Shown piece after piece: positions 2,391 to 47,119 of a stretch of DNA of 64,000 nt. Below the pieces are notes generated by a model that worked only from the letters and a program-made list of their open reading frames with translations, ran no database searches and was not told where the DNA came from. Made by a program: the position numbers and the translations under genes. How positions within the stretch are numbered: the stretch's first letter is position 1; each line of letters starts with the position of its first letter. The stretch is from Patescibacteria group bacterium. GTDB taxonomy: Bacteria; Patescibacteriota; Minisyncoccia; Phycocordibacterales; UBA9973. Where the stretch lies: positions 49,531-113,530 of the forward strand of contig JAGWLB010000002.1 in the NCBI GenBank assembly GCA_028865035.1, given 5' to 3'.

Positions 2391-3856
2391 TTTTTACCAA
2401 ACGATAGGAATTTAGAAAGTAAACTATGAGACTTAAGGTAGGCATTAATATGTTTACGTGCTAATCCTGTCTTTGTGTAAACTAACCATTTAGATGAGGG
2501 GTTAGTGTTCTTGTTGACTTGTATCTCTACAATATCATTTGTTTTTAATTTTGTATGGATAGCTACGTTTTTCCCATTCACTCTAGCCCCTTGAGTATGG
2601 TTTCCGATATCAGTGTGTATTGCATAAGCAAAATCTATCACACACGAATCTTCTGGTAAATCTATAATGTCTCCTTTAGGAGTAAACACAAAAACACGAT
2701 CTTTAAAGAAATCCATTTTAATTGTTTTTAAAAATATCTCAGGTTTTTCTTTGTTAATGTTATTGTCATTTAACTTTCTAAGCTCTTGGACCCATTCAAA
2801 TTGCTGTATGTTTATATTTTTGTTTTCTTTGTATGCGAAGTGAGCTGCAATACCATATTCAGCTTCTCTGTGCATTTCATATGTACGAATCTGAATTTCA
2901 ACTATCCCACCTGTTCCAGTAAATATCGTAGTATGTAAACTTCTGTAGCCATTTAATTTTGGAGTAGCTATGTAATCTTTAAAACGATGAGGGAGAGGAG
3001 TCCATGCTCCATGTATGATACCCAGGACATGATAACAGTCTGCAATGGAGTCAACCATTACCCTTAAGGCTAGTATGTCGTATATCTTGCCGATATCCAT
3101 ATCATACTTTTTTAATTTTTTCCATAACGAATACAAATGCTTTTGTCTGTAGTCAACGTTGGAGTTTTCTATGTGATCTTCTTTTAACTTTTTTATCAAT
3201 TCATTCTTAACTTCAATCAAATACTTTTCATCAACACCTTTCTTATCTAAAAGTAATTTGTATACTTCCTTGTATTCTTTAGGGTAAGCAAATTTAAATG
3301 CAGCATCTTCAAGTCGCCCTTTGAGTTGACCCATAGAAAGACGATTAGCCAAAGGTGCATAAACTTCAAGTGTTTCGAGGGCTATTCTTTTCTGTTTGTC
3401 TAGTCTGACATGTTCAAGTGTCTCTATGTTATGTAATCGGTCAGCAAGCTTAATAACTAGTACTCTTAAATCCTCAGTCATAGATACAAAGAATTTGCGT
3501 AAGTTTTCTACATTACGTTCTATTCCTTTGTATTTTATTGTGCCGAGTTTTGTTACTCCTTTTACAAGTAGTACTATTTCTTCTCCGAATTCGTTTTTTA
3601 ATTCTTCCTCGGTTGTATTAGTATCTTCAAGTACGTCGTGTAAGAAACCAGCAGCTATAACTACTGGACCCATACCTAAGTCAGCTAAATTTTTAGCAGT
3701 TTGAAAAACATGAGTAAAGTATGGTTTACCACTTTTACGAAGTTGGCCATTATGGGCTTTAAGTGCAAAATTATATGCTTTCTCAATAAGTGCTTTTTCA
3801 CTAGCATCAATATTGGGAATAATAGAGAATATTTGGTTTATATCTACATTAGGCAT
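2387..3856 (-). CDS. rel: bifunctional (p)ppGpp synthetase/hydrolase, short Rel/SpoT form (HD + synthetase + TGS domains, no ACT domain)
   Basis: HD motif FLHDVLEDT; synthetase motif RFKDYIATPKLNGYRSLHTTI; TGS segment DRVFVFTPKGDIIDLP; length 489 aa. Confidence 0.85.
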   Translation of the reverse strand: MPNVDINQIFSIIPNIDASEKALIEKAYNFALKAHNGQLRKSGKPYFTHVFQTAKNLADLGMGPVVIAAGFLHDVLEDTNTTEEELKNEFGEEIVLLVKGVTKLGTIKYKGIERNVENLRKFFVSMTEDLRVLVIKLADRLHNIETLEHVRLDKQKRIALETLEVYAPLANRLSMGQLKGRLEDAAFKFAYPKEYKEVYKLLLDKKGVDEKYLIEVKNELIKKLKEDHIENSNVDYRQKHLYSLWKKLKKYDMDIGKIYDILALRVMVDSIADCYHVLGIIHGAWTPLPHRFKDYIATPKLNGYRSLHTTIFTGTGGIVEIQIRTYEMHREAEYGIAAHFAYKENKNINIQQFEWVQELRKLNDNNINKEKPEIFLKTIKMDFFKDRVFVFTPKGDIIDLPEDSCVIDFAYAIHTDIGNHTQGARVNGKNVAIHTKLKTNDIVEIQVNKNTNPSSKWLVYTKTGLARKHINAYLKSHSLLSKFLSFGKN

Positions 3857-14604: not shown

Positions 14605-15017
14605 GAGCTAGAGCTATTATTTTAAATAATAATAAATTACTAGTAGTAAAGCATTCACATGATTCGAGCTTCGCTGCTTTACCAGGGGGTCACCTTGAAT
14701 GGGGAGAAGATATCAAGGAATGTTTATCTAGAGAAATTGTAGAAGAACTTGGAATAAACCCTGAGATTGGAAGACTACTATATGTTAATAATTTTACAGA
14801 AAAAGATACTGAGCAATCAGTAGAATTTTTCTTTGAAGTTACAAATGGTTATGCGTATAAAGATTTTGAAAATCATACAAGAACACATGCATATGAACTT
14901 GCTGATATACTTTGGATAGAGCCTAACGATCTTGTGAACATTCTACCAAAAGAATTTGAAGAAGATTTTAAATTAGGGAAAATTATTTCTGATCAAGTAA
15001 GATATATACATTCTTAA
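14583..15017 (+). CDS. NUDIX hydrolase
   Basis: Nudix box GGHLEWGEDIKECLSREIVEELG. Confidence 0.8.
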   Translation: MEKKIIVRARAIILNNNKLLVVKHSHDSSFAALPGGHLEWGEDIKECLSREIVEELGINPEIGRLLYVNNFTEKDTEQSVEFFFEVTNGYAYKDFENHTRTHAYELADILWIEPNDLVNILPKEFEEDFKLGKIISDQVRYIHS

Positions 15018-15088
15018 ACAATAAAGATTTAAATGAAATTACTCCAGACTATAAATGAAAAAGATTTTTTCTGTTATAATATATATGT

Positions 15089-27105: not shown

Positions 27106-28643
<1,538 letters not shown>

Positions 28644-42999: not shown

Positions 43000-43053
43000 A
43001 ATATATTATTTAAAAATAAAACTTCCCTCATAAAAGAGGGGAGTTTTATTTTT

Positions 43054-43179
43054 TTATTTAGATTTCTTCTTTGATGCTTTTTTCTCTAACATTAATTTTT
43101 TAACCTCTAATCTTTTCTTAGTCTTATGAGAGTGACGTGATCTCTTTTTAGGACCAAGAGTTGTATCTCTTTTTGCCAT
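43054..43179 (-). CDS. 41-aa highly basic protein (possible small ribosomal protein, bL32-like PKKRSRHSH segment), not in the ORF track
   Basis: MAKRDTTLGPKKRSRHSHKTKKRLEVKKLMLEKKASKKKSK. Confidence 0.3.
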   Translation of the reverse strand: MAKRDTTLGPKKRSRHSHKTKKRLEVKKLMLEKKASKKKSK

Positions 43180-43335: not shown

Positions 43336-43408
43336 TCCGGAGTAGCTCAGCGGTAGAGCAAGCGACTGTTAATCGCTTGGTCGCAGGTTCGATCCCTGCC
43401 TCCGGAGC
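43336..43408 (+). tRNA. tRNA-Asn (anticodon GTT)
   Basis: TCCGGAG acceptor, anticodon loop CTGTTAA, T-loop GGTTCGATCC; terminator hairpin at 43437-43468. Confidence 0.85.
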
Positions 43409-43470
43409 ATTTAAAAATTTTATAAGAATGTAAAGAAAAAATCCTGCCTTTTAAAAGACAGGATTTAAGA

Positions 43471-43700
43471 TTGTGTGAACCCATAAGTAGACGTTTAACC
43501 GCGTCTGCTGGCACGTCAATTAGACACTTACTTTCTCTTAGCAACATTGGCATACGTTCCGTGTTAACTACTGGCTCACTTATAAAAAGTGTTATTCTTT
43601 GGGCGGTGTGTACAAGGACTGTTTTTACGCCCTATTAAAGCTCGCTTTCGCTCAGTCCCCCAAAGCACTTTATCTAAGGTACAATCTCAAGACTATATTA
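43471..43700 (-). other. mosaic of near-exact universal 16S rRNA motifs in non-rRNA order (1400-region CCTTGTACACACCGCCC; 530-loop GTGCCAGCAGACGCGGTTAAACG; GGGCGTAAA; GGACTGAG)
   Basis: Exact 17-mer match to the decoding-site consensus and 20/23 match to the 530 loop, both on the minus strand, ~90 nt apart. These differ from this genome's own 16S at those positions. Confidence 0.6.
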
Positions 43701-43709
43701 GCATATTAT

Positions 43710-43741
43710 ACTCTTCCGAACATCCTCCCAGGTTTGGAGCC
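43710..43741 (+). repeat. cassette-associated inverted repeat, copy 1 (ACTCTTCCGAACATCCTCCCAGGTTTGGAGCC)
   Basis: Half-sites CCGAAC/GTTYGG separated by 10 bp, immediately upstream of the promoter of 43809. Confidence 0.75.
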
Positions 43742-43808
43742 ATACTTGACAAATTACTTTATATATTATATTTTAGAGTTAAATTGTTAAACTAAAAATT
43801 GAATAATT

Positions 43809-44312
43809 ATGAAAAAAGTTTTTCTTGTTCTTTTAATAACATACTCAATAGTATGTACAGGTTATATTATTTATCTAAAGTCACCTCTCAATGACCATGG
43901 GCATAGACTCTACGGAGTTAAGAATCCAAAAACTATGTTAGTTTTAGATTCAATATTCCGTGATGTAGCTAACCTTCATAGGGATTTGGTCTTTAAGGTT
44001 GGACCGAGTACTCAGGCAATTTACGACAACGGCAGAGTTGGCTTAAATTATATAAGCGACTCAACAGTGGATCTTCCATTATCTGGGCCCAGCTTCGTTG
44101 TCAGTAATCCAGAAGAATCAGCACAAAAAGCCGCTAGGATTCTAACCCGAAATGGATTTAATGCCAGAATTATTGTTAATTTTGACTCAACTTTATCCAA
44201 TAAATTAGTTTTACTTCAAAGTAACTCTATTAATTGGACACTTGTTTTTAGAAGAGATATTCTAAATATGGGCAAGAAACCAAAAGACATAGGTTTCGGA
44301 TGGGCAAAATGA
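43809..44312 (+). CDS. hypothetical membrane-anchored protein (167 aa)
   Basis: N-terminal TM helix; terminator hairpin at 44341-44370. Confidence 0.45.
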   Translation: MKKVFLVLLITYSIVCTGYIIYLKSPLNDHGHRLYGVKNPKTMLVLDSIFRDVANLHRDLVFKVGPSTQAIYDNGRVGLNYISDSTVDLPLSGPSFVVSNPEESAQKAARILTRNGFNARIIVNFDSTLSNKLVLLQSNSINWTLVFRRDILNMGKKPKDIGFGWAK

Positions 44313-45277: not shown

Positions 45278-45832
45278 ATGAGAAAAATAATTGTACAAGA
45301 AATGATTAGTGTTGATGGATTTTTTGCTGGAGAAAACGGTGAAATAGATTGGCATAATGTGGATGCCGAATTTAATAAATATGCTATTGAATTTCTTAAT
45401 ACCATAGATTCTTTGTTGTTTGGCCGCATTACTTATGAACTCATGGCAAGTTATTGGCCTACAGAAGCTGCTTTAAATGATGACCAAATCGTTGCTTCTA
45501 AAATGAATAATCTTTCGAAAATTGTTTTTTCTAAAACCAGGAATATATTAGAATGGAATAACTCAAAAGTGTTTTCTGAAATTAATGCAGAAGAAATAAA
45601 AAAATTAAAACAAACTGAAGGTAAGGATATTGCCATATTTGGCAGTGGTACTATTGTATCTGAACTTACCAAACTAAGATTAATTGATGAGTATCGGCTT
45701 ATTGTAAATCCTATAGTTCTTGGTAAGGGTAAGTCATTATTTTCATATATAGAAAAAAGATACAAGTTACAGCTCGTAAAAGTAGAAAAGTTTAAATCAG
45801 GAAATGTTTCCCTTCACTACAGTCTTTTATAG
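45278..45832 (+). CDS. dihydrofolate reductase-like (RibD C-terminal domain family)
   Basis: MRKIIVQEMISVDGFFAGENGEIDWH start and a DHFR-like fold pattern. Confidence 0.6.
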   Translation: MRKIIVQEMISVDGFFAGENGEIDWHNVDAEFNKYAIEFLNTIDSLLFGRITYELMASYWPTEAALNDDQIVASKMNNLSKIVFSKTRNILEWNNSKVFSEINAEEIKKLKQTEGKDIAIFGSGTIVSELTKLRLIDEYRLIVNPIVLGKGKSLFSYIEKRYKLQLVKVEKFKSGNVSLHYSLL

Positions 45833-45929: not shown

Positions 45930-46403
45930 ATGGAAGAAAGAGATACAGAAGGAGCTTTTAGATGGATTGTAAATATAATTAAAAAACATAATATACCTTT
46001 TCAGATAAAAGGTGGTTTTGCTTCACGTCTATATGGAGTAAAAAGGGAACTGGCTGATATTGATATATCTATCCCAGAGAATAGATTTGATGAATTAATT
46101 CCTGAAATAAAAGAGTTTATTGTATATGGACCAGAACAATATTTAGATGATGAATGGGATATAAAACTCATAACTCTAACTTACAAAAATCAGGATATAG
46201 ATATAGCAGGAGCATATAAAAAGAAAAACTTTGATAAGATGAACCAGAAATGGGTAAATATACCGACTAACTTTGATACTAGTGTGTATATGGATGTATA
46301 TGGTTTAAATGTACCAGTGATTTCTAAGACAGACCTAATAAATTACAAGAAACTCATTCAAAGAGATGTAGATATATTTGATATTAATGCTTTAAGTAAG
46401 TAA
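45930..46403 (+). CDS. small nucleotidyltransferase-fold protein resembling lincosamide (Lnu) or aminoglycoside nucleotidyltransferases
   Basis: IKGGFASRLYGVKRELADIDISIP parallels Lnu WLDGGWGVDVLTG...HRDIDIDFD; 157 aa. Confidence 0.45.
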   Translation: MEERDTEGAFRWIVNIIKKHNIPFQIKGGFASRLYGVKRELADIDISIPENRFDELIPEIKEFIVYGPEQYLDDEWDIKLITLTYKNQDIDIAGAYKKKNFDKMNQKWVNIPTNFDTSVYMDVYGLNVPVISKTDLINYKKLIQRDVDIFDINALSK

Positions 46404-46516: not shown

Positions 46517-47119
46517 ATGATAAAAGTATTAATTTTTGATGCTGACGGTGTTCTCATAAATGGTGAGATGTTCAGTAAAATACTTGCTAAAGAATACGGA
46601 ATCTCAACCGAAATAACAGAACCATTTTTTGACGGACCTTTTAGTGAGTGCTTAGTTGGTAATATTGATTTGAAAGAAGCTATTTCTCCATATTTAGAAG
46701 GTTGGGGATGGAAAACAGGTGTGGATAGTTTCCTAGATTATTGGTTTTCTGCAGAGCACTCTATTGATCAAGATTTGATTGCATATATTCAAGAATGTAG
46801 AAAGAGGGGAATCAAGTGCTATGTTGCAACCAATCAAGAAAAGCATCGAGCTGAGTATATGCTTGATAAATTAGGATTTGTAAATAACTTTGATAAGCTT
46901 TATGCTTCTGCGCATTTAGGGCATAAAAAACCAAGTTTGGATTTCTATGAAAAATTAGTAAACGATCTCGACGGCATAAATAAAGAAGAAATCCTATTTT
47001 GGGATGATTCACCTAAAAATATAACGGCCGCACGACAATTTGGAATTAATGCAGAATTATATACTACTTTTGAAGATTTTAATAAGAGAATGAAGATTTA
47101 TCCTGATTTTGATAAGTAA
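46517..47119 (+). CDS. HAD superfamily hydrolase (subfamily IA)
   Basis: IFDADGVL motif I; bidirectional terminator at 47152-47175. Confidence 0.75.
   Translation: MIKVLIFDADGVLINGEMFSKILAKEYGISTEITEPFFDGPFSECLVGNIDLKEAISPYLEGWGWKTGVDSFLDYWFSAEHSIDQDLIAYIQECRKRGIKCYVATNQEKHRAEYMLDKLGFVNNFDKLYASAHLGHKKPSLDFYEKLVNDLDGINKEEILFWDDSPKNITAARQFGINAELYTTFEDFNKRMKIYPDFDK

Follow-up and report, generated by a model that had tools for sequence, protein, structure and literature searches.

A small RNA apparently assembled from 16S and 23S ribosomal RNA segments in a Patescibacteria genome, and its possible role as a mimic of the decoding cleft

Bacteria copy ribosomal RNA (rRNA) outside the ribosome in the leaders of ribosomal-protein (r-protein) operons (S8/spc, S15, L1, L10, L20 and Bacillus rpsD), where an extra-ribosomal RNA reproduces the rRNA site of an rRNA-binding protein. 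These leaders are cis-acting elements of the 5' untranslated region with one binding site each, and to our knowledge rRNA mimicry is otherwise known only in this form, as cis-acting operators in ribosomal-protein mRNAs. The DNA described here, called the window throughout, is a 64-kb stretch of a Patescibacteria metagenome-assembled genome (MAG) from NCBI, whose M1 aminopeptidase is closest to Paceibacterota/Nomurabacteria proteins. Between a tRNA-Asn gene (43336-43408, plus strand) and a hypothetical gene (43809-44312, plus strand), its minus strand holds a predicted RNA of about 255 nt. Unlike the leaders, this RNA is free-standing, has its own terminator and no r-protein gene downstream, mixes 16S with 23S modules, and copies 16S helix 18 (h18) far more literally (20/23 nt plus the pseudoknot). 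An opposite-strand tRNA follows its terminator, and its neighbours carry no r-protein domains.

Free, structured, terminator-ended small RNAs (sRNAs) form a second point of comparison. 6S RNA, an open-promoter mimic, Y RNA/YrlA with its tRNA-like module, and the CsrB/RsmZ sponges sequester a protein, or are thought to do so, through imitation of a nucleic-acid ligand. None, however, has rRNA as its model, and they share no sequence or covariance-model similarity with the RNA of the window; the best YrlA match (15.5 bits, E = 2.2) covers the tRNA flank only. The scrambled mitochondrial rRNA genes of apicomplexans and Chlamydomonas also consist of short conserved cores, out of order, with small-subunit (SSU) and large-subunit (LSU) pieces mixed. 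Those pieces form the sole ribosome of the organelle, whereas here a complete, normal 16S gene is present and a single 255-nt fold, far too small for part of a ribosome, unites the pieces with non-rRNA helices. Neither the window nor the homolog described below has an adjacent enzyme of the kind that accompanies retron msr-msd, IS110 bridge RNA or TnpB/IscB omega RNA, and the likely functional strand is not complementary to rRNA, as that of an antisense RNA would be. The RNA fits none of the systems compared and looks like a kind not yet described.

Gene boundaries were set by alignment with the homolog, L003, by a terminator scan, and by -10-like boxes just upstream. The resulting features are these:

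43435-43690, minus strand: the complete small-RNA gene (about 255 nt), bounded by the first base of the closing stem P1 and the last of the terminator T-run
43695-43710, minus strand: promoter-like region with two overlapping -10 candidates (TATAAT at 43710-43705; extended -10 TGCTAATAT at 43703-43695)
43681-43690, minus strand: P1 5' strand, UUGAGAUUGU, which pairs with 43474-43465 and closes the whole RNA
43654-43665, minus strand: 5' strands of P4 and P5, CUUUGGG and GGACU (helices 4 and 5; P5 with one compensatory change, U-A to A-U)
43627-43652, minus strand: 23S-rRNA-like block of 26 nt, AGCGAAAGCGAGCTTTAATAGGGCGT / AGCGAAAGCGAGCUUUAAUAGGGCGU, in the variable apical region of P5, from 23S comparisons
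43601-43617, minus strand: exact copy of 16S 1388-1404, CCUUGUACACACCGCCC, from sequence matches, with its fold taken from the two-sequence structure
43573-43577, minus strand: P6 5' strand, GAGCC, which pairs with GGUUC at 43481-43477 and encloses P7 and the h18 replica
43539-43570, minus strand: P7 hairpin (helices 8 and 9), with two doubly compensated pairs
43483-43531, minus strand: P8, a replica of 16S helix 18 (E. coli 500-545), from the canonical h18 pairing imposed on the alignment
43465-43474, minus strand: P1 3' strand, ACAAUCUUAA (helix 1 of the consensus structure)
43435-43466, minus strand: intrinsic terminator, a 12-bp stem AAAUCCUGUCUUUUAAAAGGCAGGAUUU followed by UUUCUUU (terminator scan: hairpin 43466-43439 plus T-run)

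These signals mark out the minus strand from 43690 to 43435 as a predicted independently terminated, structured, non-coding RNA on the rRNA-sense strand. The promoter-like region and the Rho-independent terminator lie on the same strand, and comparison of both homologs together with protein searches in all frames found no conserved open reading frame (ORF) or coding signal. The -35 box of the window is weak, and its -10 candidates were read directly from the sequence, unscored by the consensus scan. The -10 region aligns with the -10 of the L003 promoter, TTGACA-N16-TATCTT, and presumably functions as part of a promoter.

The homolog emerged from a metagenome scan for GTACACACCGCCC-N70-100-GTGCCAGCAG, which returned two loci. 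One of them, L004, is a chance match in GC-rich DNA; the other, L003 (JACCDV010714708.1), is a true homolog with about 80% identity over about 240 nt and the same architecture. Immediately preceded by the 3' end of argS and followed by an unrelated ORF, ORF186, it carries on its rRNA-sense strand the promoter just given and its own terminator, which is not homologous to that of the window. Since the same mosaic occurs in a second assembly and in another context, chance is ruled out as its origin, and assembly chimerism largely so. A direct repeat of 31-42 nt (641-682 and 946-988; one mismatch, one indel) brackets the RNA gene in L003 and duplicates the last argS codons and the TTGACA -35 box, so that the RNA and the downstream ORF186 each have a promoter copy. 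This repeat suggests an insertion or duplication. The window copy has no comparable flanking repeat.

Folding of the aligned pair with RNAalifold gave 63 base pairs, 12 of them changed on both sides and none broken. With the h18 pseudoknot included, the consensus structure has 65 shared pairs and 99.2% of its cells are paired, against 35-45% when partners are slid; doubly changed pairs number 12 in the conserved structure and 0 for every slide. MAFFT slightly misaligned P3; a manual recount gives about 9 clean double compensations, distributed over P1, P5, P6, P7 and P8. P1, with 10 bp, two doubly compensated pairs and one G.U/G-C switch between the window and L003, closes two domains: a 5' domain made of the long helix P3-P5, and a 3' domain in which P6, P7 and P8 meet in a three-way junction. 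P6 has two doubly compensated pairs and, by position, may correspond to 16S helix 3. P7 has no clear rRNA counterpart, and its loop A(A/U)CGUAUG is conserved. As read from this pair of sequences, the RNA structure is evidently under purifying selection. The conserved structure also contains nine G.U and no A.C cells, so the fold would break on the opposite strand. This asymmetry, the terminators and the sense-only sharing of k-mers with rRNA agree, and the evidence favours the minus, rRNA-sense strand as the one that would be active.

A previous reading of the DNA from its letters alone, the sequence-only reading, had noticed an exact 17-mer of the decoding site on this strand, and the match stands. 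CCTTGTACACACCGCCC at 43617-43601 (minus strand) equals 16S 1388-1404; allowing up to three mismatches, the 64 kb contain only this site and the resident 16S gene (two mismatches), with 0.03 matches expected by chance. The middle of the 17-mer, UUGUACACACCG (43615-43604, 16S 1390-1401), forms a 12-nt bulge between P5 AGUCC (43620-43616) and P4 CCCAAAG (43603-43597), and the 22-mer around it, UCCUUGUACACACCGCCCAAAG, is identical in the window RNA and L003. The native partners of 1390-1401 in lower helix 28 and helix 44 (h44) are absent, so that the 1400 strand is presented unpaired. The G-run of 43654-43665 appears to resemble the 5' strand of 16S helix 28 (16S 925-933), and P5 GGACU/AGUCC seems to stand where upper helix 28 would, with a short tip replacing the whole 3' major domain.

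The resident 16S gene (27106-28643, 1349 bits in Rfam) differs from the RNA at both the 17-mer and the 530-loop site (TCTTGTACTCACCGCCC; CAGCAGGAGCGG / GTGCCAGCAGGAGCGGTAATACG). This bears out the claim that the mosaic is no self-duplication, and the claim that it is more canonical than the genome's own 16S is supported for the 1400 block. Because that block stays canonical though the resident 16S has diverged, it is not maintained by gene conversion from the genome's own 16S. Within the resident gene, U921A is paired with A1396U, apparently a compensatory change in helix 28, and the changes in its h18 pseudoknot and helix 28 would mismatch the universal primers 515F and 1392R/1406R. The 64-kb window holds neither a 23S nor a 5S gene, which makes the rRNA genes unlinked.

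The second 16S module extends well past the 530-loop match that had first drawn attention. That match, GTGCCAGCAGACGCGGTTAAACG at 43514-43492 (minus strand), is confirmed at 20/23 positions of the 515-537 consensus, with 0.00 expected by chance. E. coli 16S 495-550, the resident 16S and the window and L003 RNAs were aligned, and the E. coli pairing was imposed on them (500-504/541-545, pseudoknot 505-507/524-526, 513-515/536-538 and loop pairs). Of all cells, 98.4% show canonical h18 pairing, compared with 28-44% when the partners are slid as a control, and 9/16 pairs are doubly compensated across the four sequences; a single cell is unpaired, in the pseudoknot of L003. At the pseudoknot, E. 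coli has GGC/GCC, the resident 16S UCC/GGA and the window RNA GUC/GAC; in the window RNA the pseudoknot is accompanied by a lower stem GUAAGU/ACUUAU, an upper stem GACG/CGUC and the 530 loop UGCCAGCAGACGCGGUUAAA. The loop retains 515-524 and 527-531, with 17/20 nucleotides kept. As a structural element, 43531-43483 belongs with SSU rRNA helix 18, having the same lower stem, pseudoknot, upper stem and most of the loop. It differs in being free of the 16S context, in its stem sequences, in the substitution of A532 and U534, and in its neighbours, which are P6 and P7 rather than helices 3 and 17. On this alignment, the whole h18 secondary structure including the pseudoknot is preserved via compensatory changes, beyond a mere motif.

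The remaining module is the 26-nt block at the tip of P5. It matches 23S rRNA (E. coli about 625-651) at 23/26 positions in Priestia and Pseudarthrobacter, at 21-22/26 in Clostridioides and Aureimonas, and at 24/26 in a plasmid-borne 23S of Rhodobacterales, and it is collinear with E. coli 23S about 617-655. L003 has a different 23S motif at the same P5-tip position, AGUAGUGGCGAGCGAAA (E. coli 241-256), which matches Mesomycoplasma hyorhinis 23S at 17/17 positions and two other 23S sequences at 16/16. The sequence-only reading had taken GGGCGTAAA (43632-43624) for a 16S 566-574 box, which is refuted: it is the end of the 23S-like block. Its GGACTGAG box, also read as a 16S motif, is one P5 strand plus a linker, unconserved in L003 and of a match size expected by chance. 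The idea of a mosaic of non-collinear consensus rRNA motifs survives, but the proposed order of about 315, 570, 1400 and 515 was wrong in detail, the actual order being the 23S-like block, 16S 1388-1404 and 16S helix 18.

Compared with a panel of nine rRNA sequences, the sense strand shares 11-mers over 65 nt in the window and 54 nt in L003, where shuffled sequences average 15 nt and 11 nt, and the antisense strand shares 0 nt. The rRNA likeness overall is far above chance and strand-specific. Taken at the level of sequence, the RNA is assembled from 16S and 23S segments inside a non-rRNA scaffold, and its three modules are rRNA-derived. Several further candidates were discarded: other 23S sequences did not reproduce an L003 match to 23S 2460-2477, several 9-12-mer rRNA matches are mostly at chance level, and a truncated 'mini-h44' and a 16S 1493-1515 match are unsupported by the consensus fold or the alignments.

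Searches for a wider family returned little. At gathering thresholds Rfam has no match to the RNA, the best non-tRNA score being 15.7 bits (E = 3.6). SSU and LSU models match nothing in 43380-43860 even at E <= 10, and only 27106-28643 matches SSU; the covariance-model check for a 16S remnant (RF00177) thus gave no match, and the pieces are not collinear. ARAGORN found no transfer-messenger RNA (tmRNA), and tmRNA, RNase P, signal recognition particle (SRP) and 6S RNA were rejected as identities, with no conserved motifs and no Rfam matches. Beside the M1 aminopeptidase gene, nhmmer --max found no homolog in seven loci of relatives (72-76% identity), where the tRNA-Asn is also absent. The 64-kb window has a single copy, about 150 kb of related loci have none, and where the homolog of the adjacent ORF167 (P0002) adjoins gatC, the RNA is absent. 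Occurrence of the RNA in the sequences searched is sporadic. The absence in relatives, together with the bracketing repeat in L003, fits an accessory gene that is gained and lost.

BLAST found nothing in phages and only rRNA genes in plasmids. When both RNAs were translated in six frames, concatenated and searched against 5.8 billion proteins, none of the 8000 candidates, probably mostly 16S-derived ORFs, matched, and a 55-aa antisense ORF searched against 1.84 billion representatives hit repetitive long proteins only. A genome-contig scan for GGGCGTAAA...TGTACACACCGCCC produced one chance match, in an esterase-like coding region of an Anaerolineaceae MAG; the GGGCGTAAA anchor is unconserved in L003. 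Viral scans for the 17-mer not followed by G yielded three chance matches in coding DNA, and L012, L023, L031 and L033 were set aside as chance matches in coding DNA. In the literature, no comparable rRNA decoy or mimic was found outside r-protein leaders. In one relative examined for these comparisons, DNA polymerase III alpha is called as four consecutive fragments with gaps (L010, 13311-16506; for example 14789-15083); this may reflect frameshifts, an intein or intron, or a fault of the assembly.

What the RNA does is approached through the pattern of its conservation. The longest invariant stretches between the window and L003 are the 22 nt around the 17-mer and 17 nt of the h18 loop, and the stems vary. 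Invariance of the exposed, rRNA-identical nucleotides with drifting helices is the pattern expected of a molecular mimic. Both mimicry as the function and the nature of the ligand are inferences. The favoured but tentative reading, put at somewhat under an even chance, is a structured sRNA made of joined rRNA copies that would act in trans as a mimic of the small-subunit decoding cleft. Conserved rRNA segments would have been copied and joined into a new scaffold of about 255 nt. Its 5' domain (P3-P5) would display the 1400 strand as a single-stranded bulge, with the 23S block held in the variable tip, and P8 in the 3' domain would display h18 with the 530 loop and pseudoknot. A factor whose normal target is the 530 loop/h18 and the 1400 strand would then be bound by the RNA and titrated.

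Candidate ligands include a ribosome-targeting toxin, a hibernation, initiation or assembly factor, an rRNA-modifying enzyme such as RsmG, and protein S12. A toxin or other foreign factor fits the accessory distribution. RsmG binds free 5'-domain 16S rRNA and prefers native-like h18 (PMC9054591), so a free h18-type RNA can be a ligand. S4, the classic binder of the h18 region, does not require the h18 pseudoknot (PMC2665224), which weakens the case for an S4-binding mimic. With no h44 A-site loop in the RNA, a decoy for aminoglycosides is unlikely.

Several observations weigh against decoding-cleft mimicry. The RNA lacks the native partners of the 1400 strand in lower helix 28 and h44 as well as A1492/A1493 and the aminoglycoside pocket, and A532 and U534, both universally conserved in the 530 loop, are altered. 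The two homologs have different 23S-derived tips, and it is not obvious how such a tip would relate to the decoding site. All covariation comes from a single pair of sequences, the two family members found. The minimum free energy (MFE) z-score of the sense strand with its terminator is weak (-2.05), and the MFE z-scores of the cores show no strand preference. No conserved neighbouring gene common to the window and L003 suggests a partner protein.

Some of these points would suit a structured sRNA that reuses rRNA modules, such as a stable pseudoknotted or GNRA hairpin, as building blocks for a function unrelated to mimicry, for example base-pairing regulation or the binding of an unrelated protein. 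The structure is conserved, the partners of the 1400 strand are missing, the apical 23S block is interchangeable between homologs and two universal loop nucleotides have changed, all of which is compatible with rRNA modules taken up merely as stable folding units. The parts that remain identical to rRNA, however, are exposed single strands, the 12-nt bulge and 17 nt of the 530 loop, while the helices drift; a mere scaffold would constrain the helices and not the loop sequence. The 1400 block also stays canonical where the resident 16S has diverged. Such reuse is regarded as unlikely.

Distinctly unlikely, too, is a selfish or neutral chimera of rRNA fragments, generated by template switching or microhomology joining and propagated as a small non-autonomous mobile element whose structure serves mobility. 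It would account for the union of unrelated 16S and 23S segments, possibly joined at AGCGAAA (between two 23S motifs) and ACCGCCC, for the 31-42-nt repeat around the L003 copy, for the different contexts of the homologs, and for the absence from the syntenic regions of relatives. The ORFs within several kb, and those across the L003 contig, nevertheless include no reverse transcriptase, transposase, recombinase or nuclease. The RNA is a single copy in the window with none in the related loci, the window copy is without a notable flanking repeat, and every helix has compensatory changes, which speaks for sustained selection on the fold.

A cis-acting leader or attenuator, in which an rRNA-mimic operator and its terminator control a downstream gene as in r-protein autoregulation, is improbable. 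An intrinsic terminator does end the RNA, r-protein leaders are known to work by rRNA mimicry (Meyer 2018, as cited in PMC11109978), and same-strand ORFs lie downstream in both genomes, a 41-aa ORF (43179-43054) in the window and ORF186 in L003. These downstream genes are unrelated to each other and non-ribosomal by Pfam, however; the opposite-strand tRNA-Asn separates the window terminator from the next ORF, and L003 has a second promoter copy after its terminator.

The sequence-only reading had proposed a plus-strand transcript, read through from tRNA-Asn, as a multivalent antisense RNA against canonical 16S. It saw in such a transcript the kind of molecule that an episymbiont might turn on a host ribosome; of this idea, the copying of canonical instead of self sequence at the 1400 block is what still stands. 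The plus strand is co-directional with tRNA-Asn and perfectly complementary to canonical 16S 1388-1404, and the plus-strand hairpin at 43439-43466 is not followed by a T-run, so read-through is conceivable. The proposal is nonetheless very improbable: the terminators of both homologs and the consensus promoter of L003 lie on the rRNA-sense strand, the nine G.U pairs of the fold become A.C on the plus strand, 11-mers are shared with rRNA in the sense direction only, no tRNA lies upstream on the antisense side in L003, and a faithful h18 fold is meaningful in the sense orientation only. Least credible is a decaying foreign rRNA pseudogene or an assembly or polymerase chain reaction chimera, the sober alternatives of that first reading: scrambled rRNA pieces in a MAG invite the idea, but L003 repeats the mosaic order in an unrelated assembly and context, there are 9-12 compensatory pairs with no broken helix pair, the truncated helices are neatly capped, and the RNA has its own promoter and terminator and matches neither the SSU nor the LSU model of Rfam.

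Two neighbouring ORFs deserve mention. The 41-aa ORF at 43054-43179 (minus strand), MAKRDTTLGPKKRSRHSHKTKKRLEVKKLMLEKKASKKKSK, is very basic, has no Pfam match and possesses a bidirectional terminator-like hairpin at 43012-43053; its product may be a small ribosome-associated or nucleic-acid-binding protein. About 2.3 kb from the RNA, a 157-aa ORF (45930-46403, plus strand) has a weak match to the aminoglycoside-2''-adenylyltransferase family PF10706 (20.0 bits against a cut-off of 21, E = 8e-4). It stands in a run of small accessory-looking genes, including a RibD_C-like gene (45278-45832), a HAD hydrolase gene (46517-47119) and two ORFs without Pfam matches. Any tie between this adenylyltransferase-like ORF and a decoding-site mimic is speculative.

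Viral contigs scanned for 530-loop variants contained mostly real SSU genes on misclassified contigs, together with two stand-alone matches. In the first, L028 (IMGVR_UViG_3300033068_001534, 2470-2560, minus strand), the exact canonical 530-loop 22-mer GTGCCAGCAGCCGCGGTAATAC forms the loop of a hairpin with a perfect 9-bp stem (GUCACCGGC/GCUGGUGAC), followed by a terminator-like hairpin, and Rfam detects no SSU gene there. The hairpin is intergenic, flanked within its phage replication module by an acidic 304-aa gene on one side and on the other by a 150-aa gene read as VRR-NUC-like. The second, L013 (2255-2310, plus strand), is an h18-like hairpin, CUUG-UGCCAGCAGCAGCGGUAAAA-CAAG, with a possible lower stem; the contig end cuts the locus. 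It begins at the stop codon of a 607-aa phage ORF, a putative portal gene, whose UAA stop occupies the place of the h18 508-510 'UAA', and the phage collection held no longer relative of it. Isolated h18 mimics thus recur on mobile DNA and may be a wider feature of it, a point that counts in favour of decoding-cleft mimicry. Among the other contigs of the scan, six from IMG/VR (L022, L024, L025, L029, L030 and L034) carry SSU genes with low Rfam scores, tRNAs and group II introns, and look like mitochondrion-like organelle genomes misfiled as viral.

The most far-reaching form of the mimicry reading is doubtful: a ribosome decoy acting in trans, the first found in nature, in which a portable RNA reproduces the ribosome's universally conserved, unmutable surfaces (the 530 loop/h18 and the 1400 strand), together with exchangeable 23S blocks, and mops up a factor by which ribosomes are attacked or regulated. 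The canonical, non-self 1400 block may then mean a foreign ligand, either a toxin from a competitor, host or phage or, should the episymbiont export the RNA, a factor of its host. The L028 and L013 hairpins would be minimal versions of the same strategy, and the differing 23S inserts would imply a mechanism for capturing rRNA fragments. Whatever its function, the RNA carries a practical warning, as perfect or near-perfect sites for universal 16S primers and probes (515F and 1392R/1406R regions) occur outside rRNA genes. A free-standing RNA that unites a whole 16S helix and its pseudoknot with an exposed decoding-site strand, bears 23S blocks as well and turns up sporadically in ultra-small Patescibacteria would found a new class among structured RNAs. 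Were it a decoy, studies of structure and ligand binding would gain a natural, minimal RNA of the decoding site, and its existence would hint at conflict or regulation, so far unrecognised, at the most conserved surfaces of the ribosome, perhaps involving a new toxin, antibiotic or other factor for which the 530 loop is the target.

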